The notes beneath the pieces are model-generated. The model had not been told where the DNA came from. It worked only from the letters and a program-made list of their open reading frames with translations, and searched no databases. From assembly GCA_043228905.1 (NCBI GenBank), contig JBHGNT010000632.1, positions 1 through 18,755 of the forward strand: a DNA stretch of 18,755 nucleotides. The letters run 5' to 3'. Each line of letters begins with the position of its first letter. Position 1 is the stretch's first letter. This document shows, one piece after another, positions 1 to 18,755 of the stretch. The DNA is from Azolla caroliniana (lineage: Eukaryota > Plantae > Polypodiophyta). The translations under genes and the position numbers were made by a program.

Positions 1-953
1 ATACATGGGAGCACATGGTGGTCAAAGAGCCTTAGTTATTGAGTTATATAAAGGGGACTTGCAACCCCCTTCGTTATGAAATCTTGAGGCCATCAGTGAG
101 GATAAGCCCTCTTATTTGAATCCATTATTCAACAACCAAAGTATAACATAAGGTATTATTCATGATATGGCACAATAATGGTGTTTTATATTTGTATCGT
201 GTCCTTTGCTCGGGGTGGTCAATGTGGTTAAGTACCCTTTATCTATTATTCTCCTTAATCTCTTGTTCTTTTGCTCATCATTAATCTGATAAACAATATT
301 CGAGAAATTAACATTAGAGTGAGCTATGTGTTTCTATTTGGTCACTAGTCGAGTTCCTTTTACAGGTTACCCTCTTCCCCTATTGCTCATGAGTTTGAGT
401 CTATAAGCCTTGTTGGAGTTCTTCATTACAATCACATGCAAGCACTAACATTAGTATGAGTTAAATTTTTAATGGTTTAAGGATACTTCAGGATTTGAGA
501 AAACTCACATAAGAGGTCATGACATGTGGCAATTATAAAATGCCACATGTCGACTCAAGGACTTAAGGGCTTGCAATTATAAAACGAGGAATAGCTAACC
601 TAGTCAAGGGAGGAAGACAAACTTATTTGCTAAAACATTGCAAAAGACACCGATGGTGAGGTTTGGCAGCTAGCTCTTGCAGCAATAATGTTATACTGAT
701 TGCATCTAATGTAATGATCTTAAGCAACATTTCTGTGGTATAGGATGCCGAGGGTGTTTGAGACACATCTTAATTCCTTCACTTGAGGGTGCTTGGATGG
801 AAAAGTGCAGTTTATTCCATTTCAGTATTACATTTACATGCTTATTTATTTGATCATTAGTTATAACCTTAAATCAGAGGATGTTTAGTGAGCTCGAGGA
901 AGAGCTGAAGCCTCTCTCAATATCTTAAATCTCTTCTAGGTGTAGCCTTGATG

Positions 954-1071
954 TCTATCTCTATCCATCATGCTCTATTCTATCTATCCTACTCTATTCT
1001 TCTCTATGTCTATCTCTATCTATTCTATACTCTTACCTATCTCTCTATCTCTTCTTCTTCTTCTTCTTCTT
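954..1071. repeat. Compound pyrimidine-rich microsatellite (CTAT/CT/CTT)
   Basis: Runs of tctatc and ctct, and a (CTT)n tract at ~1049-1071. Confidence 0.85.
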
Positions 1072-1147
1072 ATGTCAAATGAGATAAAACCTTCATTTTT
1101 AAGTTTTAACTATTCTTTCCATCATATAACATTTATGTACTTTAATA

Positions 1148-1166
1148 CCCCCCCCCCCCCCCCCCC
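1148..1166. repeat. Poly-C tract (C19; G19 on the minus strand)
   Basis: 19 consecutive C residues. Confidence 0.95.
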
Positions 1167-1215
1167 AAAACCTCTCAAACCTTCACACATACACAGACAG
1201 ACAGACACACAGAGA

Positions 1216-1234
1216 GGTTTAGGGTTTAGGGTTT
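1216..1234 (-). promoter_or_regulatory. Tandem telo-box (AAACCCTA) near the PPR gene start
   Basis: GGTTTAGGGTTTAGGGTTT contains two overlapping TAGGGTTT copies ~100 bp upstream of the ATG. The telo-box is an established plant promoter/5'UTR element. Confidence 0.75.
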
Positions 1235-1324
1235 TAAGGCCTGGCACAGTCCTCTGAATCGCGCGCCCGAGAGAGAGACAGAGACGGAGAATGCTGTCTT
1301 CTTCTTTGTCCTCGTTGTAGAGAG

Positions 1325-1385
1325 ATGCATGGCGTCTACAAGCGTGTGGTCTACATCCGTGGCGGGCTGCTCCGTCATATACATG
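1325..1385 (+). CDS. PPR gene exon 1 (MHGVYKRVVYIRGGLLRHIH-G, basic presequence-like)
   Basis: ATG at 1325, donor G|GTAAGT at 1386; phase 1 matches the acceptor at 1876/1877. Arg/Lys-rich with no acidic residues. Confidence 0.7.
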
Positions 1386-4300
1386 GTAAGTAAACGAGAA
1401 CCCGCAGAGATAGATAGATAGATTATATTATCGTCTTCAGAGAGAGAGAGAGAGAGAGGGAGAAAGAGAAAAGACACTCCAGGCTTCTCTTAAAAGGTTG
1501 AGAATGGCCTACGCGACTGATTGAAACTTGTTAAAAAGTTTAGCATCTGTGAAATTCGGAGAAAGTAAAGAAAACAAAAAGTAGAAAATAATGCATACTA
1601 GAAATCAATGGCGGCTGTCAAAGTTTGGAGAAAGAAGACAACGATGTTAACATCACCTAGAGGCCAAAGCCGGGCAATGGAGCAAATCAGAAGGATACGA
1701 ATTAACATCATCTTAGTATCCATTAAAGAATATGTAAAGCAGGAAAATAAATTTGCAATGATACGTGCGGTCATGACTTGTGTGATGGTGTCTTCAATGT
1801 GAGAGAGAAGGCGATGATGATCTATGAGAGTGAGATAGAGATAGAGAGATCTGGTTTGTTTGTTTGTTTGCTGTAGGAGAGGCATTTGATCAGAGAAATC
1901 ATCTCAAGTCCAAAATTTGTGAAGCTATTCAACAGAGAAAAGAGAGGGCGGCATTGTCAGAAGTACACCAATTGTTCAAATTAAAGGATGTTTCTGTATT
2001 AGATTGTAATCAAATATTGCAGGAATGTTGGGTCCATGCCAATGGAAAGGTACTCATTTCTCACTAGAGAGGGTGTCATCTTTCTGCTCACTTATGGTGG
2101 ATATATCTATGCCATACATTGTAAACATGCTACTGTTTAGACTAAAGTCTTACTGGCATAATCAGAAGCTTGTTAGATTGGGCCTTTTAATTTGTGGTGT
2201 ACTTTTTGTACCAGTATATTAAGTATGATATTAAACAAGAGAATGATCAATTTAGTAGAGTAACTTTAAGGTATAGTACACATAGTACCATTCACGAGGT
2301 ATTACGTAAAACTAAATGTTAAATCCGCGTATGTGAACATCCATGGCTACATACGATTTATTTGCATCAATGAAAAGACACCTCTATTCACAATCTGGGT
2401 TCACCATTATCTGTTGTGGTAATCAACGCTGTATTTCTATTACATGGAATAAAATGTTTCATGCTTGCAACAAACATATATAGGCACCATACCATTATGT
2501 TTGGGAGTGTTTTGGTCACCTGAGATCTTCACACTCATTATCCTTCTCTTGTAAATGCTGCTGACATATTCGCCATGGTGGTACAATTGACGACTTCATA
2601 AGCCCATCTTCAATGTCTTTAATTGGTTCTATCCTTGTTGCTTAGAGGAGGGTGCTGGCAGCTGTGCTCCTAGATATGCAGGGAAGGTTGTGACCTATAA
2701 ATCCTTTCCTATCTTGTCCTGTAAACTTTTGCCTGAACAGGTAAACCCTTTTAAAGAGGTGTGTAAATATGTTAGACGCGCGATTCTATACATAGAGATA
2801 TATTTTTCTATCTTCACAATCTCCTTGGATTTTGACGCATCTTTTTCATTCATTCAATTGATTCTTTGCTGGAGAGGCATGGGGAGCAAAACGTTTGTGC
2901 ATGAAATGACACATCCTTTGAAAATGGGGTGAGATTGATGAATCATCATATAGGATTGATTAAAGTATGACGGGAAATTGTATGCCATGATGTTTGCATA
3001 TGATTAGAGTTTCTGGTGACCTGCCAAATTCAAAAATAGAAGATGAGAACGGAACTTTCTTGTTTTATGTTTCAAAGGGAATATATAACCACAAAATTTT
3101 TGCTACACAAGCTTCAAGTTATCATAAGTAATAGTTCAAGTTGGATATGGTTCAACTGAGGATTTACAGTGTCATTAAGGGTCCATATATATCTCACTGT
3201 CTCTCAGCGTATTATGATAGAGTGATAATGTGAACCTAATCTTTTGTGTTGCAGGTTGCACACTCCATGTGGACATCTATGAAAAATGAACGAATAAGCT
3301 TGAATACGTTTTCCATAGCATGTCTTTTGAGTGCTTTGTGCCGGACTGGACTTCTTGATGAGGTAGGGAAAATAAGTCCAGTATTTTCTAAGCAATGTTT
3401 ATAGTGATATGCTTAAAACATTTCTTGAGATTCATAATGCATTAAGAGTTTTATTATGATTAATTATCACAAGCTGAATGAGTGATCAAGATAAAGACGC
3501 CTTCAAACATGCCTTCAAATACAGGATCTTGGTGCTTTCTTTCTACAAATTGGCCATTTGGTAGGCTGTATACACAACAATTCACTCATTGGTGGATAAC
3601 ATGGCTAAATGGCTGAGTATAGCCATTCAATATAAACTAATCCTGATGAATAATTAAAAATTCTGTCCACTTCCCATGCTCATTATTCAACTAGGAAGCA
3701 CTTCAGAATCATGAGTTAATGATGGAAGGATAATACCTCCTTTATCTTACATGGTACTGCTAAAATACATGAACACATGAGTTTATTATCGAGAGAACAC
3801 TTTTGCAATGTCAGACGTTATTTATGCTTAAAGTGTTCGTATACTGACATAAGAGGCCTTAAAACGTGAACAGTTTTAGAAGATAATATTGATATCCATA
3901 GAAGATCTTGGATGGTCAATGTTGAACTGAATCATTTTACTGAATACCTGCACCTTACTCATCTCCCAATTAATATGATATTAATAAAGTGCATGTAGAA
4001 ATGAATGCTTACTAACTAGAGTGCAATATGGAGTTCCAAATGAGATGCAATTAAATATATGGGTTACAACTATAGGTCAAGGAATTGTAACGTCTCTTAA
4101 CATAAGAGCCTTAGAAAGATGACAACTACCTATGTTAACTCGTTAACGTGGTGATGCTAAAACAAAGAAATGGCGCAGGTACAATATTAAGATCTCATGT
4201 GCAAAAGCATGGGACTGAAGCTTGATTGTCTTGACTCTTCAGTTGAGCAGTTGGCACGTGAATATGCAATTACACATGTGGAAGACTAGTAATATATTTA

Positions 4301-7300
4301 CTGCACAGCAATATCTCTTGTTTTCTAAATCATGTCAAAGTGCGGATCATATGACAGGCATTGGAGATTCTGTGTAAACTGGGTCGGGAAATCAATGTAC
4401 AACCAAACATTGTATTTTGTGGAATATTCTTGAGTGGTTGTTCACAAGCTGGAAGCGTGTCCCATGCGGAGAAATGCTTGCGATTTATCAATGAGAAAGG
4501 CATGAAAGAAGATGAGCTGATATATCTTGAACTGATGAAGGTGAGTCTTTTTTTCTATACAGTCATTAGCACATTTTTCAATGAAGTTTCTATATTCTTG
4601 CATCATGGGATGCAAGGATGAAAAGTGTTATAGGATCCGAGGGAGTTTTTTGCAAGCGTTAACCTTCCTTTAGTACAGCTTGCTGGGAAGAGGAAGGATT
4701 TGCCAGCTGTTCATAAAGCATGGTCCTTGATGGTTAAAACATGTAGACCATCAATGCCATGCTTGGAATCCTATTCCACGGCAGTTAAAGCTTTGTGTCG
4801 GGCAGGCTCCTTCCCTGAAGCTCTCGTTGCCTTGCGAGAAATGGTTCAATTGGTCTCAACTAATGATAAATTTACTCTGCTCTCACAAAAACTAGTGAAG
4901 ATTAAAAGTCTCTATGATGATGAGGATATGGCACATTTAGAAGAGATTGCAAGGACCAGAGGTACTTTCGCAAAGAAGGACGAAAACCAAATTGTGGATG
5001 ATTCTACTAAAGAAATGAATGTACAACAGCCTGAGATTAAAGAATCTGAACTCCAGAAGAACTTTCCTTTGTCGGCCAGTAATACAGACACAGATAACAC
5101 CAGTAAAGTGGAAAGTAAAGATATGAAAACTTCTAGCAATGATATGAAAGTGCAAGAATCAAAGGCTAAGATTTGTGACAAACAGAAAAACATTTATTTT
5201 GGAAGTGTTGACATGCAAAATGTGGACTTCCTACGCTCTCAAGCTACAGGGGGCTCGCCTTATGATCAAATACTTGCCTGGACAAGACTTGCAATGATGA
5301 ACTTGCAGCAGTCAGATTCAACAAGTCTTCCTGAGAACTTGCAATCTATGGGAAGTCCTATATCTGGTTTTTTTTCAGATAAATATGCTAAAGTCAAGGA
5401 TATTTTACGGGAGACATTCAATGCAATAATAAATACTGCTGTTAATAGAGGAGATCTGAATTCAGCAGAGGTCATGTTTAGTCAGGTTTATTTACCATAC
5501 CTTATTTTTATTTAAGCTTGTTTGTGATATCTCTTTGTATGTTCGCTGAATTTAATGTTGTAATGGTGTAGATGCGTACCGTGGATTTAAAGCCTGACAT
5601 ATATAGCTACAATGCAATGTTAAGAGCTGTAGTGAGAGGAAGAGGGCTTGACCAAGGATTTGTAGTGGTAAGGTCAATAAGCCACCATTTTCTTATTTCT
5701 CCTCCCAATTTTGCACCGTTCCTAGAAAAAGAAAGGAAATAAAAAACCACCCTTTGTTTTATTTGTAATGTTCCATGTGGCTGTGTTCTTTTTAAATGGC
5801 TTTATCAGTTGTAAATTTTCTGGATATTTTGCTGATGATGAGTATGGTTATGCTGACTCCTGAGTCAGTTAGTAATTGAGGTCACCGAAATTTAAATCAA
5901 AACAGAAATCGAAGATTAATTTTCAGTTAAACATAATATGGTAATATATATTCTCGGTAGAAAGCTATCTTAAACAGATCTTGCATTCCCAAAAATGTAG
6001 TTTCAAAATTTCCAACTGGGGCATGCTCATTGTTAGTCTTGTGTATATTCTAACAATGAAAATAGAGCAGCTTTTGTATGAAAGGTGTGCAAGAGATCCT
6101 TCAAAACATTACCTAGAGTTATATACTAATTCAGTCAATGTTTTTTATTCATTGATCTGACAATGTACAGGTTAAAACTATGGAAAGTGATGGTGTAGAT
6201 CCAGATACTAAAACATATAACGCTATTATAGAGGGGTTCTGTTCTAATTTGGAGTTGGATAAAGCAGAAGCTCTTCTTGAACGCATGCTGACTTGTGACA
6301 ATAAGCAAAAGCCCTCCACTGTATCTTTCAACACAATTTTGAAGGCGTGTGGTGAGTTGGTATGTCATGAAGTTTATCTTGCACAAGGCATTGATTTTAA
6401 ATTGTCAAGATCTGCTAGTTTGACTTCTCATCAATCAGAAATTTAATCTTAATGCTGTTTATCTTTTTGATCCTTCTTTCAGGGCGACCTAATAAGGGCA
6501 TTACGTGTTTTGTCAAAAATGGTCAAAGCAAATGTTACACCTGATAGATGTACGATCTTGTACTTATTATCTGCATTTGGCAGAGTGAATTATCCTTACG
6601 AAAGGGGGACGGAAGAATCACAGAATGAACTTTCACAAAGAATTTCTGCTATTGAAGCTTACATGGAATCTGCAAAAATGCCACACAACTTCCAAACTTT
6701 TAACGCTGTGGTAATTCAGTCAAATCAATTCACTCAGCAATCTATATGATTTTCCTGCCCATGTTAGCATTCTACTTCCATATGCTTTTGAAACATTGAC
6801 TTCTAATCATCATCTGCCATGTCAGAATTACATAATTGAGAAAACTCACAGATAGTTCAAAAGCCCATTTTGAATTTTTAAACATTAACCAGTTAGGAGA
6901 AGATCAGAAAACGGTATAAGAAGGTATTCAATGAACCTTATAAGTTTTTACCATGAAGAGTTACTGTAGTCACTGAATGATTAGCCATACTTTTCTGTGT
7001 GATCCGTTTACACAAATTGTCATGAGGAATGGATGTTTGAGTTATATAATTGAGAAAATTCACAGACAGTCCAAAAGCCTATTTTGTAATTATAAACATT
7101 AACCAGTAGGGAGAAGACCACGAAAAGGTGTAAGAAGGTATTCAGGGAACCCTCATCAGGTTTTACCATGAAGAGTTACTTTAGTCACTGAAAGGTTAGG
7201 CATCCTTTTCTGTGTGATCCTTTTCCACAAATTATCATAAGGAATAGTGTTAGGTGGTTTTTGAAATCAATCTCTTAAAGACCGTGTATGCTGTTGGTCT

Positions 7301-9589
7301 TAGCATCCTTTAAACTACTGGAGTTGACCATTCTAATGGTGGTAGAATCAAATTATTATTATTTATGAGAGGCTTGTTCAGAGAGCTAATTGTTCTAAGG
7401 CTGTTGGTGCCTATTTGGGAATTCTCCAGGATCTCAACCTACTAACAAGACAGAAGACAAACCAAATATACATTCACACCATAATAGTTAATGTTTGGCC
7501 TCTCCCTAATGAGCAGACTATGTGGATTTAAAAGAGTATTCACGATATTACGTTGAAATATATCCAGAATTTTAAAGATGGCTTCAAGGATGTTTGCAAT
7601 AAAACCCTACCATGATGATTGACTAGTTGGAGATACTCTTGCAGCTGCACTTTAGCAAACAAATTCTATAAGAGTGATCAAAGCTTTGTAGAGCCATCAA
7701 TTGGGAATATCACCATTGGTGAATCATTGATTGGGATGTTACCATTCAAGACTATTCAAATGAGCAACTTTTCTGGAGATGTATTAATACCCACACATAC
7801 AAGCGAAGGATAAATCTGCCAAATATTTTGAAACTAATCTACATTTATTCTGTTTCAACATTTTCTGGTTATATGCAGTTTAGAAGAGAGTGTAAGGAGC
7901 AGTAAAGTTTAGATTCTTTTTCATAAAAAAGACTCAAAGAATTCTTTGTTGCTGCTGCTTCTAGATGGTGGCATTAAGTGCAGAAGGAATGGTTGATGCA
8001 GTAATTCATCGCCTACATCTTGCGGAGGGCTGTGTGGGTGGTGATGGTCTTCCCATCCTAACTGCTATTACTTTCAACACAGCGATACATGCATGTAATC
8101 AAGCTAAACAGGTGAGGAAATATCAATCTTTCTGTGAACAATGCCTTTCTCTTTATTTCTCTCTCTTCACACGTTGCTGAATGTAGTGGGCTGCAGCAAA
8201 GGAAGTTTTCAGGAGAATGAAAGATTTAGGTTTAAAGCCAAATACAGAGACATATAATGTCTTCATTGATAGTTGTGCTGCGCAGAAGAAACTTGGTGAT
8301 GCGTTTCAGTACTTAGAAAGAATGCAAGAGGAGGAATTGAAGCCAACATTATATACCTACAACTCACTCATCAAGGTAACATTTAGCTAAAGCATTATTG
8401 TTTGAGTAGTTTCTGAAAAAGCAAGATTGCAAATGGTCTTACTCGATGTGTAGATGGATTTGCTTTAATAAAGCCTTTGTGAAATTTTTATGTTATATTA
8501 ATGCTGCACTTATATTAATACTTTTCTTCTTTTTCAAGAAAAGGAAAGTTTGAGTAATTTCAAATGATCATTGATTAAAAATTTGAGTTATATGAACTAA
8601 TTTTTTTATATATTGTTTGTAATATTCCTATCCAATAAATATAAGGGGAACGTTCCTTTCTCCCCTCAATTTTCAGACTCTCATAAGTTTTCCATTATGT
8701 GCACTACAACAGTATAAGAATGTTGCATTGATTTTCTTATATCTCAGATTTTCTATTTAGAATCCTTTACATACTTTTAGAGTACTTTATTTTCTAAAGA
8801 AACTGAAAACCTCTGGTGATAGTGAATGGATTCTTTTACTGATATTTCTAACCTTGTTCTTAAAGGTATGCTGCTTTTGTAAGAAGTTGGATGCAGCTGT
8901 GAATCTCTTAAAAGAGATTGAGGAGTCTGGCATGGAACCGACCATTGTCACTTTTATTACTTTACTTTCTGCTGCTGTTCATGAGGTATATGTTCCATAT
9001 TTTAAATCCAAAAAATATCTCGTAAGATATAGCTTCAAGAAAGAAAGCTTAGATTAATGATGGAAAAATCCATCAGAATGCCCATGTGGCATAATTCCGA
9101 GGACAGCAACAAAAACTAATAGCATTTGTGTCAGTGTGTATATATTCAATCCTCTTACATATGTGAAACCTACAGGAGCGCATGGACATGGTCGAGTTCC
9201 TGATCGAGCACATGCATAGAAAGCAAATCCAACCAAACATTACCATTTGTGAACTCATAGTTTCTGCATATCTCAACTGCCATGAGATTGATGATGCAGC
9301 CGAATCATTGGGAGTTTTGAGTACCCGAATGCTTCCAAAAGGCCAACATATACCAGGGAAAATGGAAGATATTCTAAAGCAGATCTGCCTTGAGGATAGC
9401 CTTGAAGTTGAGTCTAGTACAATGGAGTTGTTGAAAGACGCCTTAGTTAATAAGGGATTAGCTTCGCAAGCCCTTTTTGCAGCTCGATTATCAGGTTTTG
9501 GCAATGCTTCTATGGATGTCTGGGATACCAATGAAAGCCCATGGGCGAGGCGGTTGAGGATCCAGTATGACCAAATAGTTTCATACTGA
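1325..9589 (+). CDS. P-class pentatricopeptide repeat (PPR) protein, 12 coding exons, ~904 aa, At1g76280-like
   Basis: Exons 1325-1385, 1877-2049, 3255-3362, 4358-4540, 4679-5485, 5572-5667, 6171-6359, 6483-6710, 7965-8111, 8187-8375, 8866-8985 and 9176-9589 splice at GT..AG into one stop-free frame. Repeated PPR signatures: LKPDIYSYNAML, GVDPDTKTYNAIIEGFC, GLKPNTETYNVFIDSC, ELKPTLYTYNSLIK, GMEPTIVTFITLL. The C-terminal ESPWARRL and overall layout match my recollection of At1g76280; orthology not verified by search. Confidence 0.92.
1439..1470. repeat. (AG)n microsatellite in intron 1
   Basis: agagagag... run directly visible. Confidence 0.9.
1877..2049 (+). CDS. PPR gene exon 2
   Basis: (GTTT)n tract plus TAG acceptor; encodes EAFDQRNHLK...HANGK; donor AAG|GTACTC. 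Confidence 0.85.
3255..3362 (+). CDS. PPR gene exon 3 (not in ORF track)
   Basis: TTGCAG acceptor; encodes VAHSMWTSMKNERISLNTFSIACLLSALCRTGLLDE, a degenerate PPR motif; donor GAG|GTAGGG; 108 nt, phase 0. Confidence 0.88.
4358..4540 (+). CDS. PPR gene exon 4
   Basis: CAG acceptor; encodes ALEILCKL...YLELMK; donor AAG|GTGAGT. Confidence 0.9.
4679..5485 (+). CDS. PPR gene exon 5 (large; includes a low-complexity linker)
   Basis: CAG acceptor; encodes LAGKRKDLPAVHKAW...AEVMFSQ; donor CAG|GTTTAT; 807 nt. Confidence 0.9.
5572..5667 (+). CDS. PPR gene exon 6 (not in ORF track)
   Basis: TAG acceptor; encodes MRTVDLKPDIYSYNAMLRAVVRGRGLDQGFVV; donor GTG|GTAAGG. Confidence 0.9.
6171..6359 (+). CDS. 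PPR gene exon 7
   Basis: CAG acceptor; encodes VKTMESDGVDPD...LKACGEL; donor TTG|GTATGT keeps frame with exon 8. Confidence 0.88.
6483..6710 (+). CDS. PPR gene exon 8
   Basis: Pyrimidine tract plus CAG; encodes GDLIRALRVLSKM...TFNAV; donor GTG|GTAATT. Confidence 0.9.
6828..7245 (+). repeat. Diverged ~214-bp tandem duplication in intron 8
   Basis: ATAATTGAGAAAA starts at 6832 and again at 7046; the copies are colinear through ...CAT(G/A)AGGAAT, ending at 7030 and 7245, with many substitutions. Confidence 0.93.
6830..7420 (-). mobile_element. Ancient LINE reverse-transcriptase relic in intron 8
   Basis: Minus-strand translations in LINE RT order: NSLRTISSLN (cf. NYRPISLLN), IDFK..IPYDNLWKRI (cf. 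VDFKKAFDTIP), FSLLVNVY (cf. LSPLLFNIY). Very degenerate. Confidence 0.45.
7965..8111 (+). CDS. PPR gene exon 9
   Basis: TAG acceptor; encodes MVALSAEG...ACNQAKQ; donor CAG|GTGAGG. Confidence 0.9.
8187..8375 (+). CDS. PPR gene exon 10 (not in ORF track)
   Basis: TAG acceptor; encodes WAAAKEVFRRMKDLGLKPNTETYNVFIDSC...YTYNSLIK; donor AAG|GTAACA. Confidence 0.92.
8866..8985 (+). CDS. PPR gene exon 11
   Basis: AAG acceptor; encodes VCCFCKKLDAAVNLL...AAVHE; donor GAG|GTATAT. Confidence 0.85.
9176..9589 (+). CDS. PPR gene exon 12 (terminal)
   Basis: CAG acceptor; encodes ERMDMVEFL...ESPWARRLRIQYDQIVSY; TGA at 9587-9589. Confidence 0.92.
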   Translation, partial: ERMDMVEFLIEHMHRKQIQPNITICELIVSAYLNCHEIDDAAESLGVLSTRMLPKGQHIPGKMEDILKQICLEDSLEVESSTMELLKDALVNKGLASQALFAARLSGFGNASMDVWDTNESPWARRLRIQYDQIVSY

Positions 9590-10252
9590 TATGCATAAGG
9601 TGATTAAACCAATACAAGAAAAAGTTGTTTTATAAAAGATGTCAAAAAGTAGATACAGAAATGTATTTGTTGTTGTATTGGCATTCTTGTTTGGAAAGAG
9701 GTCATTTCGAAGTGCATTGCTCACTACCAGTGGTTTATTTGCCATGGTTGATAATCATTGGAGAATGTAAACATGAATCTGAGGAAAAAGCATGCAATTA
9801 GTTCTTATGCTTGGGCGAACCATCAGCAAGAGGAAGTTTATTACCCTTGAGGTACGTTTCCAAAGATTCACCAAATAATTAATGAATGTTACCTCACACC
9901 ACCTGAAGGGATTGCTAATTTTGCTTTCTCTTTCTGCATCATTACTGTGAGAAGTTCAATGGTGATTTTTATTTATTCATCATTGTGAGAAACAAAGACA
10001 ACGTGCATAGAAAATTGCTCAACGATAACAGATGTACAATGAGATTGTGCATAATATCATCATTATGACAGTATTTCAAAGTCCCAAGCTGAGTTCAATC
10101 CAAACAAGTATATGGGAAAGAGGGAAGTAGTCAAGTGCCAGTGGTGATTGGTTCTAGTGTCACGTATTCAATAAAACTGGATTTAAATACTGTATGATGT
10201 GTCTTGATGTAAATTTAGATTCAAATTTATGACCCTTCAGAATCATCACAAT

Positions 10253-10440
10253 TAGGGATTGGCAACAGTTTGGTTTAGGCTTAACCAGTTTGGCCTTATC
10301 CAAGCTAAACTGGTTAAGCCAAAACCGTTTTGGGGTTCTCAAATCGGAACCAAACCAAACCAAATTGATCCCTAAATTGGTTTAGGCTAAACCGCTTTGG
10401 CCTAAACTGGTTTGTGAATCAGTTTGGGAACCAGCTTGTG
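10253..10440. mobile_element. Foldback / hAT-type MITE-like element
   Basis: TAGGGAT (10253) ... ATCCCTA (10374) inverted ends; internal 23-bp inverted repeat 10272-10294/10304-10326; many AAACC/GGTTT motifs. No 8-bp TSD found. Confidence 0.55.
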
Positions 10441-10739
10441 AACCTCACCATTATTTTTCTTCCCCTCAACCTCTAACATCATCATCACCACCATCTTAGA
10501 TACAAATATATGATGGCTTTGGAGACATGCATGCCAATTTCCTTGCTTCTACAAGACACCTTGCTTGCTAACACATGGACATGGCTTGCTCTAGGTTTTG
10601 CCACCATAGCCACCTTAATCCGAGCTTTATTCACTCAGCCTCGTCTATATGAACCTCTCTCTCTTCCTCCCACAAATCAATCCACTATTTAGTATACAGG
10701 CTCCCTCCTCTCTCCCTCCCTTTCTCTCATGAGATAGAA

Positions 10740-12582
10740 GGGCATGCAAACTCATAAAGATTGGTATCGCACCTTTTATTGGGATGGATGAGATATAATA
10801 GATGATCGTGCTACTAATTGATGCCGTGCGGCCCATTTGATAGAAAAAACACCTAAGATGATGTTATGGAATTGTAACAACGCACTTTGGGCACATCTTG
10901 GCCGCCTAGAGGACATATTAAAGGTATTAGATATACTTTTCTTGGTAGAAACACACCAAAACCTAAATAGAGGACTCCCACGAGTCGAAGGGTTTCATGG
11001 GGAGTCCTTATTTAGACAAACTTCATGTTGACACATTACCAAAGGATTTGGAGGTGTTGCAATATTGTTTTAGAGAGAGCTATATAATTTGGATAGAAAT
11101 ACTAAGGACGGACCTAAAAGCTTGTTTTATGTGGGTGAAAGTCTTCACTAGCAAGGATTGGGCAGTATTTTTTGCCATTTGTTACTTTCCCTTGAAAGGA
11201 TCCCGTTATAATATGGCTGGAGAGGCGAGATTAGTTGATGAAAGAGTGCCACATGGGCCTTCTCCATATGAACCTTTATCGAATGACATAATCTAATATT
11301 CTTCCTATGGAGAAGTCTTCCATGTAGGAGATTTCAATGCGAGAATCCAATCCTGAAAATGCACAATATTTTAGATGAATATAAACCTAGAAATAGTAAA
11401 TGTCGATCTTTTAGATAGGCACCACACGTAGTCAAAAGTTCAAGGTGCAGACGCCATGAGCTTTGGTCATCATCCGCTTGAACTTGGCAATCAACATCAT
11501 ATAATCATATATAATGGTTTAGCCACAAAATAGATGGTATGATGAAGATTGTAGGGACTCACATAGACAACTAAAAGTATCACAACTTAGTTACTATCAC
11601 CTTAGTACAAGCTCACAAATGTGCAAGATGACATGTCGTAAGAGATGAGCGTGGGAAGCATCCCAATATTGGGAACTCTACCATATGCTCATGAGTAGCG
11701 ATTGCGCCATTGTGTGGAAGAGACTACGGGAACCTAGAGTCAAGACCACAAACACCCATCGAGGATCCCAACACTTGGCACACATATACAGAGAGACTTT
11801 ACCAAGACTAAAACTAGCCACCCATTCCAATGCCTTCTACACCCCGACCTACCATGGGGACACTTTTCACGATCTCTAGGGTCATGATGGTCATAAAGAA
11901 ATTATAATATAAGAAGTCCATGGACCACACAGGATTGCGAGTAGAACACATAATATATGTGCATGAGTACCTAGCACCCTTTCTAATTTTAATCTTCAAT
12001 CGAGCCCTTGTCAAGGGTTTTCCACCATAGTGGCCTATGAACACAATTACCCCCATACATAAAGGAGGGGACCCCATGGACCCAAATACATATAGGACCA
12101 TTATGATAGGCCATACACTTGCTAAATTATATGATGCAATAATGGAAGCAGAGCTTAACGAATATATGGAAACCTTAAATCTTTGAGCACCTGAATAGGA
12201 TGGCTTTAGACGAGCCTTCTCTACTATTGCTTAATTGACCAAACAAAGGCTCGCAAGCAGAAATTATACTGTTGTTTTGTGGACTTTCGCAAAGCCTTTG
12301 ACATAGTCCCTAGAGAGCAGTTGTTTGATAGGCTTAAAAGCTTGAAGATGCAAGATAACATGATTTGGGCCACCTATGCACTATATGAGCTAGTCTTCGA
12401 GTGCATACGATACCCAAGTGGCCTTTCCGATTGCTTCACTAGTTCTATTGGTGTAAAGAAAGGTTGCCCCCTCTCACCGACTCCTTTTGGGATCTACATT
12501 GATGAGATCACGGATTTTATTTCTCGAAAGGGGGGTATATAGGTTCATATCTTGCTTTATGCAGACGACATAATTTTTCTCT
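10740..12582 (+). mobile_element. LINE copy A, decayed: ORF1 tail, AP-endonuclease, RT up to YADD
   Basis: EN motifs MMLWNC, ILFLVETH, VGDFNAR. RT motifs PIHKGGD..NTYRTIMIGHTLAKLY, CCFVDFRKAFDIVPR, GVKKGCPLSPTPFGIYID, ILLYADD (YADD at 12558-12569). Many stops and frameshifts; both ends truncated. Confidence 0.93.
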
Positions 12583-13459
12583 GTAAGTTCCAACTAAAAG
12601 TGACTCCCATATATACATATGTTCCAACTACCTCGATTGGTTTATGAGAGAGGATTAGGTGACATTTACTCCTAATGCGAGACGATGTATGAAAGATAAG
12701 GACTTTAGTTTTCGCTAGATTCATTACCAATCCTCATTATGTGCAAAAGTCATCTAGGGCATTAAGGTGCTTTTGTAGGTCGTGTTCAGACCCCAAGAGC
12801 AAAACTATGTCGTCCACGTAGAGTAAGAAACTAACTTGCATACCCCCAATGGCTACTCCGTTGCTTTTGTGACGAGCAATAAAATCAGTGATCTCATCAA
12901 TGTAGATCCCAAAAAGAGTCGGTGATAGAGGGCAACCTTGTTTTACACCAATGGTGCTGGTGAAGCAATTAGATAGGCCACCCGAGCATCTTACACACCC
13001 AAAGACTTACTCCTATAGGGCATAGATGACTCAGATAATGTTATTTGGTATCTCCAAGCTTTTAAGCCTATCAAATAATCGCTCCCTAGGGAATGTGTCA
13101 AAGGCTTTGCAAAAGTCCACAAAACAACAATATAGTTTCTTCTTGCGAGCCTTCGTTTGGTCAATTAAGCATCGAAGTGTGAAGATATGGTCAATAGTGG
13201 AGAAGGCTTATCTAAAACCAGCATGTGCAGGTGCTCGAATACTTAAGGTTTCCATATAATCGCTGAGATTTGGCTCCATTATTGTACCATTTAATTTAGC
13301 GAGCGTATAATGGTCCTATAATGTATTTGGGTCCCCTCCTTTATGTATAGGGGCCAATGTGGTGGGAAACCCTCGGTGAGGGCGCGATTGAAGATTAGAG
13401 TGAGAAATGGGGCTAGGCACTCTTGAGCATATATGATGTATTCGGCCCCCAATCCTGTG
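12583..13459 (-). mobile_element. LINE copy B, RT portion (decayed)
   Basis: The minus strand encodes CCFVDFCKAFDTFPR, GVKQGCPLSPTLFGIYID, FLLYVDD, NLAKTKVLIF and YVYMGVTFS; it is an inverted homologue of 11930-12582. Confidence 0.93.
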
Positions 13460-13465
13460 TGTCAT

Positions 13466-13536
13466 GATATGGTAAGACTTGAACCCATGACCTTATGCTA
13501 CATGGGTCGAGCTCTTGACCATTAGACCATACCTTG
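13466..13536 (-). promoter_or_regulatory. tRNA-derived Pol III promoter-like cassette (A box + B box), antisense in LTR U3
   Basis: Minus strand: A box TGGTCTAATGG (13529-13519), a 33-nt spacer containing the variable-loop-like AGGTC near its end, and B box GGTTCAAGTC (13485-13476). Acceptor and anticodon stems do not pair well, so it is not a functional tRNA. Confidence 0.7.
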
Positions 13537-13643
13537 TAATACGTAGAATATTATTTTCATTTATGTTTTATTATAGAAAATTGATGTATATTCCAGATTT
13601 CTCTGGAACAATCTAGAAACTTTAGGAGTATTCCTCAAAACAC

Positions 13644-13650
13644 TATAAAA
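13644..13650 (+). promoter_or_regulatory. LTR TATA box
   Basis: CTATAAAAGG consensus 34 nt upstream of the inferred transcript start at 13678. Confidence 0.75.
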
Positions 13651-13880
13651 GGAGGCATAAGGCATTATTTCAAACCTAATCGGTTCAACGCCAATCTTAA
13701 GCCTCCTAACTAATATTGTACATTCTATTCACATAATATATATATTTTCTTATCATTACTCTCTCTCTCTCTCTCCCTCTCACTCACTCTTTCCTTCTCT
13801 CGAGAGTTCTTCACCTCTCTTAGTACTAATACTTCTTTTAGTACTAATTCCTTCTCTGTCTTAGTACTGTTCCTTACAGT

Positions 13881-13891
13881 TTGAACCGATT
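13881..13891 (+). other. Self-priming primer binding site
   Basis: TTGAACCGATT, 2 nt after the LTR end, is the exact reverse complement of AATCGGTTCAA at 13678-13688. There is no TGG-starting tRNA PBS. Confidence 0.85.
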
Positions 13892-13972
13892 TCTTCTCGT
13901 TCTTCCTTCCATATCTTCCTTTCCTCCTCTTCCTTTTATCTTCTTATTAATCCTCTTATCCTCCCTAGTAAA

Positions 13973-15086
13973 ATGGAAACTGTTAACGCTTAGGAATACC
14001 AATCTATTTTCTTGGAGCTCTAGTGCTTAAAAGAGAAATTTGTAGCACTAGAACAAGAAAATCATCGTTTGTTGGGGGATCTTCAACAAATAGCATTGGA
14101 AAAACAACATGGGGAGCTGACGTTACGTGTACAACAACTCGAAGCGACTATCGTATCATTACAACAAGGATCAAGCACTCAAGGGATTCACAAAGAACCC
14201 AAGATCGGTCATCCTGCAAAATTTGATGGGTCGATCATAGTTTAGAGGGTTTTTGAATCTGGTACATTTATTCATATAAATGCATCCTTCTCGATATCCC
14301 ACTGATGTATCATGAGTGGGACTAGTAGGCACTCTCCTTAGTGGCTCATCGTTAGCATGGTTTGCTCCATTGTTGGAAAAGGAATCTCCATTACTAAACA
14401 ATTTTGAAGAATTTATAAGTGGAAATATTGACAGCATAAGGATTGCAATCAACAAAATCCGGCGATTACGCCAAGGTGATCGTCTAGCCTTCACATACGC
14501 TGCAGATTTTCGCCTACTTGCTACTGATATCCCGTGGGATGATCACACCTTGATGGAGCAATTTCGTTATGGTTTACTCAACGATGTCAAGGATTTACTC
14601 TTGACCTTCCCCAAAGAGCCAAAGTCATTAATAGAAGCAATAAGTCGCGTGGTGAGATGCGACAACCGCCTCTTCGAACGACGTTCAAAATGACAATTTT
14701 AGATTTCGAGGGCAAGATCAGAGCCTGCCTACGCCTCAATGGTAGCAAAACCTTTTTCGAGGGAGTCATATAATGCGCCTCCAGTAAGTACTCCAATTCC
14801 GATGGAAATTAACACCACACATTGTCGTGGACCGCTATCGGAGGAAGAAAAGCAACAACGCCGAGCAAACCGATTATGTCTTTATTGCGGTGGACTAGGG
14901 CATATCGCGGTAAACTGTTCCCATAGGCCAAGAAGGCAGGTAAACCAAATAGTTGCTAGTTCTAATTGTACTAAACCCGAGTCTATTTTAGTAGGGATAT
15001 TTGATAGTCCTAATAGTACTAATAGCCCAAATCTAGTGAACAAATTTGATGTCCTTAGTCAGTTAGAAGAAGAGTTAAACGACTAA
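13973..15086 (+). pseudogene. gag: gag (disrupted): coiled-coil N-terminus, capsid domain, CCHC zinc knuckle
   Basis: ATG at 13973; KEPKIGHPAKFDG; LRQGD...YAADFRLLA...EQFRYGL; CLYCGGLGHIAVNC at 14877-14918; internal TAG/TGA stops and frameshift. Confidence 0.92.
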
Positions 15087-16730
15087 GTCTAGCCAAAATA
15101 GGAGCCGTTTGGTTGGATAGCCCTAGATTTGTGCAACCCATTAGTGGTTTCATTCCCTCTAAGCAAGTTAGCAATGTGTTCGTAGCCCAAGTAACAATTA
15201 GTACTAAAAGTACCCCTCCAGTACATGTCGTAGCACTTCTAGATTTCGGAGCTAATTCTTGCTTCATGGATAGGAACTTTGCCCAAGCTAATCAAATATC
15301 ACTCGAAAAACTCCCGTGTCCAGCCTCTATAGTAGTCATTGATGGTCGTCCCATTACTTCCAGAAATATCATAGAAGAGTGAAAGCCCGTTAATATTGTC
15401 CTAGATAATCTAGCATGTGTAGTATTATTTAATATAATTAGCATCCCAAAACACCCCATTGTTTTAAGATTACCATGGCTCGAATTACATAACCCAGACA
15501 TAGATAAAGTACAAGCCAATACGCTTCTTGACCATCGATCGTATGATTGCCCCATCGATTTACAACCGGGGAAAGAGCCACCATGGGGATCGATCTACAA
15601 TTTGTCACCAATCGAGTTAGAAGTCTTGCGAGCCTATATAGAGGAGAATTTGGAAAATGGTTTCATTTGGCATTCAAAATCTCTAGCTGGCGCACCCATT
15701 TTCTTCGTCAAGAAAAAGGATGGATCACTTTGTCTCGTTGTAGATTATCGGGGAAAGAGCCACCATGGGGACCGATCTACAATTTGTCACCAATCGAGTT
15801 AGAAGTCTTGCGAGCCTATATAGAGGAGAATTTGGAAAATGGTTTCATTTGGCATTCAAAATCTCTAGCTGGCGCACCCATTTTCTTCGTCAAGAAAAAG
15901 GATGGATCACTTTGTCTCGTTGTAGATTATCGGGGAAAGAGCCACCATGGGGACCGATCTACAATTTGTCACCAATCGAGTTAGAAGTCCTACGAGCCTA
16001 TATAGAGGAGAATTTGGAAAATGGTTTCATTTGGCATTCGAAATCTCTAGCTGGCGCACCCATTTTCTTTGTCAAGAAAAAGGATGGATGACTTTGTCTC
16101 GTTTTAGATTACCGTGGCTTGATTAATGTGACAATCAGAAATAGGTATGCACTTCCCCTTATCTCAAGTCTTTTAGAACGGATTAATGGTGCTAGGTTCT
16201 TCACGAAGATCGACTTATGGGGAGCCTATAACCTCATACGGATCCGACCAGGAGATAAATGGAAGACCGCGTTTCGCACCAAATATGGACACTTCGAGTA
16301 TACAGCCATGCCGTTCGGCCTCACTAATGCGCCAACCGTCTTCAAGCACATGACAAATGATATATTCCGAGATCTCTTGGATGTTTGTTTGATCATCTAT
16401 TTGGATGATCTACTGGTTTATTTGAAGACCCAAGAAGAGCATGATTCTCATGTACTGTTAGTACTAAAATGACTTCGAGAACATGGTCTTTATGCAAAGT
16501 TGGGAAAATGTAGTTTTGGGTGCAACTAGGTGGAATTTCTGGGCTATGTCATTTCCTCGGAAGGCATCTCCAAAATTACATTTCAGGACGCTCGTGTGTT
16601 AAATCGACATCAAGCTCGGTGGGCCCACTTCCTCACGCATTTCGACTTCAAAATTACATATCGTTCGGGGAAGCACCAAGGGAAGGCAGATGCATTATCA
16701 CTGCGTTCGTACCTAGCACCGCGTCCTAGC
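15074..16730 (+). pseudogene. pol: pol (disrupted): aspartic protease, RT, RNase H tail; integrase absent
   Basis: VALLDFGANSCFMD protease motif; [37 protein letters not shown] (16398-16409); QARWAHFL...KADALS RNase H C-terminus. Confidence 0.95.
15567..16112 (+). repeat. 3 x 182-bp tandem repeat inside the RT N-terminal region
   Basis: CGGGGAAAGAGCC recurs at 15567, 15749 and 15931. Confidence 0.97.
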
Positions 16731-16900
16731 TACAATTGTACATTTTCCTCACATAATATATATATTTTCTTATCATCACTCACTCACTCTCTCCCTCCCT
16801 CTCACTCACTCTTTCCTTCTCTTGAGAGTTTTTCACCTCTCTTAGTACTAATACTTCTTTTAGTACTAATTCCTTCTCTGTCTTAGTATTGTTCCTGACA
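16721..16900 (+). repeat. 3' LTR remnant (R/U5 part only)
   Basis: Roughly 90% identical by eye to 13701-13878; U3 and the PPT are missing. Confidence 0.9.
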
Positions 16901-18060
16901 CTATGTGGTCCATGGACTTCCTATTATGTATCTCTCTCTGAAATGGTATTGCAACCCCTCTAGACCCTCGAGTAGTGTGTCGACGTGAGGTTTGTCTAAA
17001 GATAGATTCCTAACGAAACCCTTTAACTTGTGGCAGTCCTCTATTTAGACTCTGATGTGTTTTTACTAAGAAAAGTATTTCAGATACCTTCAAAATCTCC
17101 TCTAGACGGCCAGGTTGTGTTCAAAGTGCACCAGTACAATTCCATAAAGTCATCCTAATTTTATTGTCTGTCACATGGGTCACACGCCATCAATTGGCAG
17201 TGCAATCATTTATTACCACTCGTTTATCTCGGTAAAAGGTGCGATGTCCTTCTTTACAATCTTGTATGACTCATGGCATACAAGTATTACGGTGCTCAAT
17301 TTGCATCTTGGTGAGGTCATCATCTAGGTAGATAGGGTCCCCACCTAGTCCTCGAAGAATTGGTGTCTTCTTAAAAAATGTGATTCCAGATTCCAAATCT
17401 TTAAACTAAAGGACTAAAGCTCTCTTTCTAGTAGTGTCACGTTCGACCCTCCAAGTTTTGGTGATTGGTAGGGCCTCTATGTACCCTAACATTTTCCCGA
17501 GTGTTTGTGCATCTTTATTGGGAGATGCCCCTTCCTTGAACCCAATGACACATACATTTAAACGTCGAGCTTGACGCATTTTCTATTCCTCAAGGGTAGT
17601 GTTTACAATATTTTCATCTTTTAGTTCCTTTTTAATGTTACATTTTACTACATCGACCCAACTGGCTTTTGCTAATTCCATGTCACTTTTTTCACCATCT
17701 TCCCTACATGTCTCGGGGTCATTAAGTGTTTCTGAAGTTTGATGTTTTCTATTTTAAGTTTCACGATTTTAGCTATAAGCATGTCTTTTTCTACCCTATC
17801 TTGTTGCTTTTGAGATTCGGTCTGTTTTGACCATTTTTCTATTTTAACTAAATGGTTAAAGACATCTAAGAATTCTTTCTTATAGTTTCTTCTTGTGTTT
17901 CCTTATGGTTTTTAGTTCATTTAGAAGCCATATTGTATTTCAAAAGATAAAAGAAAAGGACGAAAAAGGATGGAAAACTTAGTTCAGCATCGGTGGATGT
18001 CTCGTTCACTTCTTGAGCTCGCGAGACCTCGCGCGCCAAGTAAAAGCACCCACACCGTAG
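16901..18060 (-). mobile_element. LINE copy B, 5' portion (putative 5'UTR, ORF1, start of endonuclease)
   Basis: Resumes exactly where the LINE was broken by the LTR element. RMTLWNC...GSRGVAI is homologous to 10860-11080. ORF1 relic at 17931-17190. The 5' boundary is approximate. Confidence 0.88.
17190..17931 (-). pseudogene. LINE ORF1 relic (coiled coil + RRM + CTD, L1-ORF1p/Transposase_22-like)
   Basis: Manual translation: MASK*...(coiled coil)...RQARRLNVCVIGFKE...RALVL*FKD...IYLDDDLTKMQIEHR...TFYRDKRVVIND..N*; contains premature stops and a frameshift. Confidence 0.8.
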
Positions 18061-18451
18061 GAATGCACTCTAACGCACTCTACTGAACAACCCACGTATT
18101 CACACCCACAACAAACAATAGCAATGGTCACTCAACAACGACAATAGTCATAAACGACGATTAGTGTGATGTGGAGGCATTACAACAGATGACGACGACG
18201 ACGATGGTAGCACGACATGCAATTAGCACAAAGAGAGCTGTTAGTAGTAGAGAGAGAGGAGTAAGGAGCTGTTAATAGATAATGTTTCTAAGATTTACCA
18301 ACATGTAACGAATGAAGTTTTTCACCTGCACCACTCGACCTCTTCCTTGATGAAGGAGAAAACCAAAGAAGAACCAAACGCCCTCGGATGCTGGGTTTCA
18401 AAGCAACTTGACATGGTGTAGAAACAATTAAGAAAATAAGACATCAGAGGT

Positions 18452-18755
18452 CGAGTATGGCTCTTATGTTGTTACATCAAGACAACTTGATTGTCCAAAA
18501 AATTGGATTATCGATGATTCGGTCCTTTTCGTATTACCGACAAGATTAATGATGTCACGTTCCGCCTTGATCTCCTTCTGCACCTTCAAATACATCCGGT
18601 CTTCCATAGTTCTCTTCTCGAACCTTATCATGCCAACACTATTCTCGATCGTGTTACACCATCGTTGCCCCCGCTTGAGTTGGACACCGACCTGGAGTAT
18701 GAAGTTACTGTTGTCCTCGACTCCAATTTGGTCGCACCAAACTTTATTATTTGGT
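18452..18755 (+). mobile_element. Chromovirus integrase C-terminus (GPY/F region) and start of chromodomain; fragment runs off the window
   Basis: Manual translation RVWLL...KKLDYR*FGPFRITDKINDVTFRLDL..HLQIHPVFHSSLLEPY...EYEVTVVLDS...KLYYL; contains stops and a frameshift; not in the ORF track. Confidence 0.9.

Follow-up and report, generated by a model that had tools for sequence, protein, structure and literature searches.

A conserved antisense tRNA-type promoter unit at the LTR tip of coding chromoviruses and its possible role as a TFIIIC landing site

A protein-coding retrotransposon with the internal promoter boxes of a tRNA gene on the minus strand of its long terminal repeat (LTR) raises two questions, namely whether these boxes are a fixed and selected part of the element, and what they might do there. 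Such an LTR is found in a stretch of 18,755 nucleotides from Azolla caroliniana (contig JBHGNT010000632.1, positions 1 to 18,755), which is referred to as the window. Its minus strand carries an A box and a B box separated by 33 nt, and the B box ends 15 nt from the LTR tip (Table 1). An earlier note on this DNA had described both the tRNA-like spacing of the boxes and a unit ending just inside the LTR terminus defined by the target-site duplication (TSD), and the sequence reads as claimed. The box consensus used here agrees with the motifs named in PMC10886601. The A+B pair is the only one on either strand of the window, where 300 first-order Markov simulations lead to an expectation of 0.01 pairs. 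In a type-2 promoter, TFIIIC bound to the A and B boxes positions TFIIIB upstream, and this geometry predicts a Pol III start at approximately 13539-13546. No tRNA is recognized in the window by ARAGORN, nor by Rfam even at E<=10.

Table 1. Features of the LTR unit and of its host element (window coordinates)
Feature	Position	Strand	Basis or remark
Left TSD, CTGTG	13455..13459	+	right copy CTATG at 16901-16905, one mismatch; inside the minus-strand LINE
5' LTR of a decayed, probably Tcn1-type chromovirus, 419 bp	13460..13878	+	termini, TSD, read-depth steps at both ends
B box	13475..13485	-	sequence scan, cross-lineage alignment
AGGTC, where a class-I tRNA has its variable loop	13489..13493	-	best conserved piece between lineages
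Anticodon-arm remnant, diverged, stem lost	13494..13510	-	5' part pairs with the B box side in a lineage-specific alternative hairpin
A box of the tRNA-derived unit	13519..13529	-	sequence scan, cross-lineage alignment
AT-rich stretch upstream of the A box	13530..13580	-	sequence; putative TFIIIB footprint
TATA box of the Pol II promoter of the element, directed away from the tRNA-derived unit	13644..13650	+	sequence
Self-primer, located where the element RNA is predicted to begin	13678..13688	+	complementary to the primer-binding site
Primer-binding site complementary to the self-primer	13881..13891	+	sequence
Broken gag and pol	13970..16720	+	many stops; RT triplication; integrase wholly and RNase H mostly deleted
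3' LTR remnant, U3 lost	16721..16900	+	LTR-LTR alignment

The host element spans 13460-16900 with a 5-bp TSD (one mismatch), and its uninterrupted insertion site is visible in a second LINE copy at 10743-12582. Remnants of gag, the zinc knuckle, protease and reverse transcriptase (RT) match Pfam, but the frames are full of stops and the integrase is deleted, hence the window copy is old and dead. The deletion of U3 from the 3' LTR, already pointed out in the earlier note, is confirmed; only the last 180 bp are left, aligning to the 5' LTR with 164 identities, 14 mismatches and 2 gaps. The primer-binding site (PBS) pairs with 11 bases located about 30 nt below the TATA box of the element itself, so no tRNA primer is needed, and the previous view of a gag-pol host that does without one holds. 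A self-complementary PBS is also present in the related loci L029, L031 (with compensatory changes), L037 and L061, which amounts to 5 of the 16 LTRs examined, the others being without a readable LTR end. In RT, the nearest relatives (75-89% identity) are metagenomic pol proteins with a chromodomain; the locus L023/P0008 is 87% identical to the window copy in RT and 85% in the LTR over 343 nt. The chromodomain of the relatives retains its aromatic residues, as judged from L023/P0008 because the window copy has no integrase, and box-bearing contigs contain gag frames of 383-431 codons and pol frames of 1044-1235 codons. Self-priming and an aromatic-cage chromodomain are marks of plant Tcn1 elements, found only in mosses and club-mosses according to the available text of PMC6317226, and together they suggest a plant Tcn1-type chromovirus; combined with the PPR gene of the window, they would suggest a moss host.

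Several further features of the region were observed. Two LINE copies lie tail to tail (10743-13459 and 16906-18400) as a 75-84% inverted repeat, the minus-strand copy being the target of the gypsy insertion. Within the element, a 182-nt RT stretch is triplicated at 15567-16112 with 96-99% identity and is much younger than the LTR pair. At 18443-18755 lies a piece of another related chromovirus, with integrase and chromodomain sequence (72% to P0008), whose LTR falls outside the window, and the PPR gene region of the window contains a 214-nt tandem duplication at 6819-7251. In 4 of the 15 LTRs that were scanned, the interval from the unit to the TATA box contains nGAAn arrays resembling heat-shock elements, with arrays recorded at window 13606-13621 and in L023, L031, L035 and L040; at 13611 the window copy is unlike nearly all family copies. 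In addition, the self-primer resembles a lone sense-strand B box (window 13682-13692, L029, L037 and L061), which may be due to chance, and in L031 this B-box-like self-primer is altered together with its PBS.

Whether the unit belongs to the family or to this copy was addressed with the contigs of four DNA sequencing runs (three species labels; 2,784-4,529 contigs each) aligned to 13340-14040. Summed contig depth, which serves as a marker of repeat boundaries and not as a copy number, increases about 20-fold exactly at 13460 (from 28,984 to 596,384 in run X1), remains elevated over the unit and the whole remainder of the LTR, and drops past 13878 in all four runs. The LTR family is very abundant in the runs examined. 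Two additional runs show two kinds of loose ends at the tip, namely mixed flanks (12 contigs each, agreement 0.40-0.42) and the polypurine tract (10 and 20 contigs), which means that 5' or solo LTRs and 3' LTRs both carry the unit. Copies of the unit that follow the polypurine tract are likewise present in 3' LTRs of this family and of distant ones. An independent SINE with its own tail and TSD was not found, as 0-1% of the aligned sequence continues unlike the LTR in the four runs, and the 108 loci scanned as described below contain no such unit outside LTRs save two weak hits. The family variant table is blind at 13460-13491, where even sites that vary in L023 are missing, and so bears on the A box, not on the B box. 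The commonest A-box variant, at 13528 (54% in run X1), exchanges purine for purine at an R position, and 13527 is off consensus in 10%. Positions 13519-13524 and 13529 have no variant row, and 13530-13533 together with six of the seven sites in 13541-13547 vary. One probable RNA run yielded three contigs with a depth below 8, and contigs show no strand.

More distant relatives were collected by a metagenome search with the pol C-terminus (chromodomain), a query that ends at the LTR tip and is therefore blind to the LTR. The best 80 of 449 metagenome matches and one usable locus of a viral contig collection were used. From these 81 loci, 49 have an LTR start of 100 nt or more, 7 are too short, and in 25 no start was found by the script. 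A minus-strand score of at least 16 out of 19 is reached by 13 of 18 ingroup LTR starts and by none of the 31 outgroup starts, the best of which score 15 (twice); three ingroup loci (L032, L059 and L061) score just 14. Among the 15 ingroup loci scoring 15 or more, the A-B spacer measures 32-33 nt in 13, although 28-45 nt was allowed, and the distance from the B box to the LTR tip varies between 15 and 39 nt in the ingroup. A scan of both strands of 108 loci (401,596 bases), with a pattern that includes a loop motif derived from the data, produced 18 hits, 16 of them at ingroup LTR tips and all 16 on the minus strand. The other two are weak plus-strand A/B pairs in the outgroup loci L067:4827 and L099:5449. 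No hit was obtained in 8 of the 24 ingroup loci, comprising four degenerate but alignable copies, three contigs that end early and a rearranged one with the B box only.

On a quick IQ-TREE pol tree of 48 rows, the presence of the boxes requires one change, and 16 of the 17 box rows form a branch with an SH-aLRT of 98. The remaining locus, L061, has weak boxes and joins the box clade at a support of 46, and L036, L040, L059 and L073, with too little protein for the tree, belong to the ingroup by their LTR. The unit is absent from a sister lineage (L056-58, L071 and L091), which indicates that it is dispensable for this kind of element. A weak B box (7/10) was found in L027, a high-coverage contig, and such contigs are collapsed assemblies and not single copies. 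Searches of other collections added no carriers: a DNA-pattern search of the viral contigs returned 22 loci, all short chance matches, an RT query found no match there and a chromodomain query two distant loci, and none of the 26 distant loci from a genome contig search has the unit. The loci L105-L128 are chromovirus-like integrase ends in prokaryotic genome assemblies, probably eukaryotic contamination. Taken together, the family-wide and clade-wide distribution and the conservation of the boxes bear out the proposal of a tRNA-derived promoter of the Pol III type that belongs permanently to the LTR of a coding, self-priming gypsy element. The outcomes by which the earlier note would have been refuted, namely family LTRs lacking the segment, boxes without conservation, or an independent SINE family, were not observed.

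Conservation was measured across six lineages with open pol frames, again represented by collapsed contigs instead of single copies. Their pol proteins are 69-77% identical, and fourfold sites agree in 41% (random 29%). Between-lineage identity reaches 66% in the A box, 93% in the AGGTC loop and 77% in the B box, compared to 37% in the anticodon arm and 41% and 33% in the flanks. Shuffles with the same anchoring attain 32-40% and matched the observed identities in 0 of 2000 cases; the boxes are more conserved than their flanks, a comparison that the earlier note had proposed as a check. Likewise, an A box placed from the B box alone scores 8.3 of 9 (null 4.3, maximum 5.7). The conserved columns are tRNA invariants, including T8 (17/19), A14 (17/19), G18 (18/19), G53 (19/19), T54 (18/19), R57 (19/19) and A58 (17/19), with G10 as an exception (10/19), and changes at the degenerate box positions stay inside the permitted class of bases. 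Close to the TATA box and the start site, the lineages share further short blocks. Coding constraint was rejected as the cause of conservation, since pol stops within 8-15 nt of the LTR tip in the examined loci and there is no coding overlap with the unit. A role of the B box as a second PBS was rejected as well, because it does not co-vary with the self-primer in L031. These patterns make it very probable that the unit is a selected tRNA-type promoter. A reversed promoter that is kept near synonymous saturation, in elements that have their own Pol II promoter and no need of a tRNA, points to another job.

What has been kept is the promoter and not the fold, as the unit cannot fold as a tRNA. 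Its acceptor and anticodon stems are lost (0.41 and 0.47 paired, against 0.40 by chance), whereas the D and T stems are 0.60 and 0.63 paired. ARAGORN reports no tRNA in 19 loci and Rfam none in 16. RNAalifold finds no consensus structure common to the lineages, folding of the sense strand is not shared either, and the mean folding z is only -1.0 across loci. The earlier note had also drawn attention to an alternative stem (ACCCATG/CATGGGT) at the edge of the B box. This stem is real in the window (z -2.6) but confined to two of eight lineages; the long hairpin is strong in the group of the window copy and otherwise present in L034 only. It was therefore rejected as the conserved feature, and a conserved hairpin ending in a T run was not found across the loci.

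The role that we favor, with a likelihood somewhat short of even, is that of a TFIIIC landing site that shields the Pol II promoter of the element from silent chromatin at its predicted insertion sites. The unit occupies the first 70-95 bases of the LTR in a single chromovirus clade and faces out, with the TATA box 100-200 bp further in, and this position between flank and promoter fits a shield. A single tRNA or tRNA-derived SINE may have been captured just behind the polypurine tract and then copied to both LTRs by reverse transcription. With TFIIIC on the boxes, TFIIIB would come to lie on the AT-rich sequence that separates the unit from the TATA box. Their occupancy would keep nucleosomes sparse over a divergent promoter and set up a barrier toward the flank, and a short antisense RNA would be a by-product. 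The tRNA-gene boxes make TFIIIC binding itself probable, while a barrier or promoter-opening effect as the selected role is a guess that may well fail. The broader idea, in which a clade of heterochromatin-seeking coding elements has domesticated a tRNA gene to serve as an insulator bound by TFIIIC at the outer LTR tip, is more tentative still. With regard to precedent, a chromodomain of the same type steers MAGGY to H3K9me chromatin (PMC3350952), and TFIIIC is located at chromatin boundaries of yeasts and of animals (PMC8136502, PMC9540200); for plants, the part of the review available (PMC9540200) shows no such barrier. If true, every new copy would bring its own chromatin boundary and the many solo LTRs would seed TFIIIC sites across the host genome, so that an abundant family could be a large source of such sites overlooked by tRNA finders. 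The question bears on how chromodomain elements stay active after insertion in silent chromatin and on whether TFIIIC makes chromatin barriers in plants.

Several observations count against a shield. A barrier needs mainly the B box, yet the A box and a near-fixed spacing are kept, and the partial pairing of the D and T stems, the sister lineage without the unit and the weak boxes of L027 and L061 speak against it too. Furthermore, 13 of 18 loci have a T4 run no more than 60 nt away from the B box where 6.2 are expected, although these loci are related and not independent. Retention of both boxes and of their spacing together with nearby T4 runs fits real transcription, and the main rival is accordingly an active Pol III gene, unlikely though not negligible, in which the transcript or transcription itself is selected. 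From a 3' LTR, the antisense RNA would run over the U3 tip, the pol stop and the polypurine tract, and could damp the element RNA (self-restraint) or feed small-RNA pathways. The pol frame continues across the polypurine tract to a TGA among the first 8 nt of the LTR, and its end would therefore be covered by the RNA. This supply of the pol stop by the LTR tip can be seen at window 13460-13467 and in the LTR starts of L023, L025, L027, L029 and L034. Precedents exist in the U3 units of foamy viruses (PMC3993851) and in the Pol III/Pol II interference of bovine leukemia virus (BLV; PMC4855707), in the portions available of both. On the other hand, L023, L030/L031, L061 and L082 have no nearby terminator, a conserved hairpin able to yield a small RNA is missing, and the transcribed flank is different at every 5' and solo LTR. 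In the window copy, the unit points into the LINE inverted repeat, as the earlier note had remarked, but any consequence of this is unsupported. T4 and T5 runs at about 13217 and 12915 come before the other LINE arm, which ends at 12582, and a Pol III transcript could not fold back; a fold-back RNA over the inverted repeat was rejected on these grounds.

Less probable is a tRNA relic kept for sense-strand Pol II factor sites or a genomic-RNA signal, with its Pol III likeness inherited and unused. Conservation alone cannot name the protein, and the other short blocks shared near the TATA box and start site, as well as the poor match at G10, would suit such a relic. It is at odds with conserved columns that are tRNA-gene invariants and degenerate positions that vary within their class, with a sense-strand fold that is not common to the lineages, with the lack of coding overlap, and with a U3 B box that does not follow the self-primer in L031. 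Still more improbable is that the antisense RNA forms a D-arm/T-arm elbow and acts as a tRNA mimic, a decoy for tRNA-processing or surveillance proteins. The pairs 11-24 (with exchanges between C-G and U-A), 13-22 and 51-63 to 53-61 are intact in 15-19 of 19 rows; the number of two-sided pair changes is reached by 11 of 500 shuffles, spacing is constant to 1 nt in most loci and the variable loop is conserved. However, the D, T and anticodon stems are no more paired, in percent, than in shuffles, of which 61 of 500 reach the value, most of these pairs fall inside the box consensus, and the low folding z and the lost acceptor stem weigh against a mimic. Lastly, a one-off SINE or tRNA-pseudogene insertion in the window copy, a caveat of the earlier note, or a chance match might be suspected from a 3' LTR without U3 and from the silence of Rfam and ARAGORN, but it has practically no chance of being true, refuted as it is by the family-wide depth step, the 3' LTR copies of the same and distant families, the clade-wide scores and the expectation of 0.01 pairs.

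How the unit relates to known systems was judged from the available portions of the papers cited here. A literature search that covered mainly openly accessible papers found no description of such an antisense unit at an LTR tip, and a sugar-beet preprint (10.64898/2026.03.01.708851) just cites Helenus, the closest parallel. Helenus (TRIMp3, with Cassandra and Ajax) has tRNA-derived, conserved A and B boxes in its LTRs, which likewise contain no working tRNA and have no role in priming (PMC10886601, Kojima 2024). In contrast to the present coding elements, Helenus is short (311-1263 bp) and non-coding, and in its consensus LTRs the tRNA part is in sense orientation near the LTR 3' end, placed to transcribe the element; the present unit lies antisense at the LTR 5' tip, and its coding hosts possess a TATA promoter of their own. 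The PBS of TRIMp3 is complementary to a tRNA, whereas that of the present elements is self-complementary (in 5 of 16 LTRs examined). The same paper mentions that "not a few" Repbase LTRs contain tRNA-like sequence and analyses only TRIMs, thus sequence resembling tRNAs within LTRs of coding elements is hinted at and not described in the part available.

A coding retroelement with Pol III units in its U3 is no novelty in itself, as the miRNA cassettes of foamy viruses sit there as well (PMC3993851), and these cassettes share A/B-box promoters with the BLV miRNA cluster (PMC4855707). These viral units are hairpin miRNA genes with shown transcripts, while the present one, known from sequence, has tRNA-gene geometry and no conserved hairpin. 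Plant Tcn1 chromoviruses, including P. patens RLG1, resemble the host element in their aromatic chromodomain, self-priming PBS, LTRs of about 420-460 bp and 5-bp TSD (PMC2864245, PMC6317226). No tRNA-like or Pol III element of the LTR is mentioned in the available portions of the Tcn1 papers (PMC2864245, PMC6317226, PMC3350952) or of a P. patens transposable element paper (PMC7466625), and identity with the RLG1 LTR was rejected, as the first 400 nt of its transcript (PMC7466625) show no resemblance by eye. Boundaries at tRNA genes, ETC sites and B2 SINEs also place TFIIIC boxes beside a Pol II promoter, and B2 is mobile (PMC8136502, PMC9540200). Those boundaries belong to host loci or to SINEs and were tested in yeasts and mouse, whereas the present boxes are built into an LTR and their boundary effect is putative. 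The comparison of sequences gives good support to a real, clade-wide antisense promoter of the tRNA type that coding chromoviruses carry at the U3 tip and that selection has kept. Known LTR promoters for Pol III drive short non-coding TRIMp3 elements or make viral miRNAs; the present one is reversed and belongs to elements that code for proteins.
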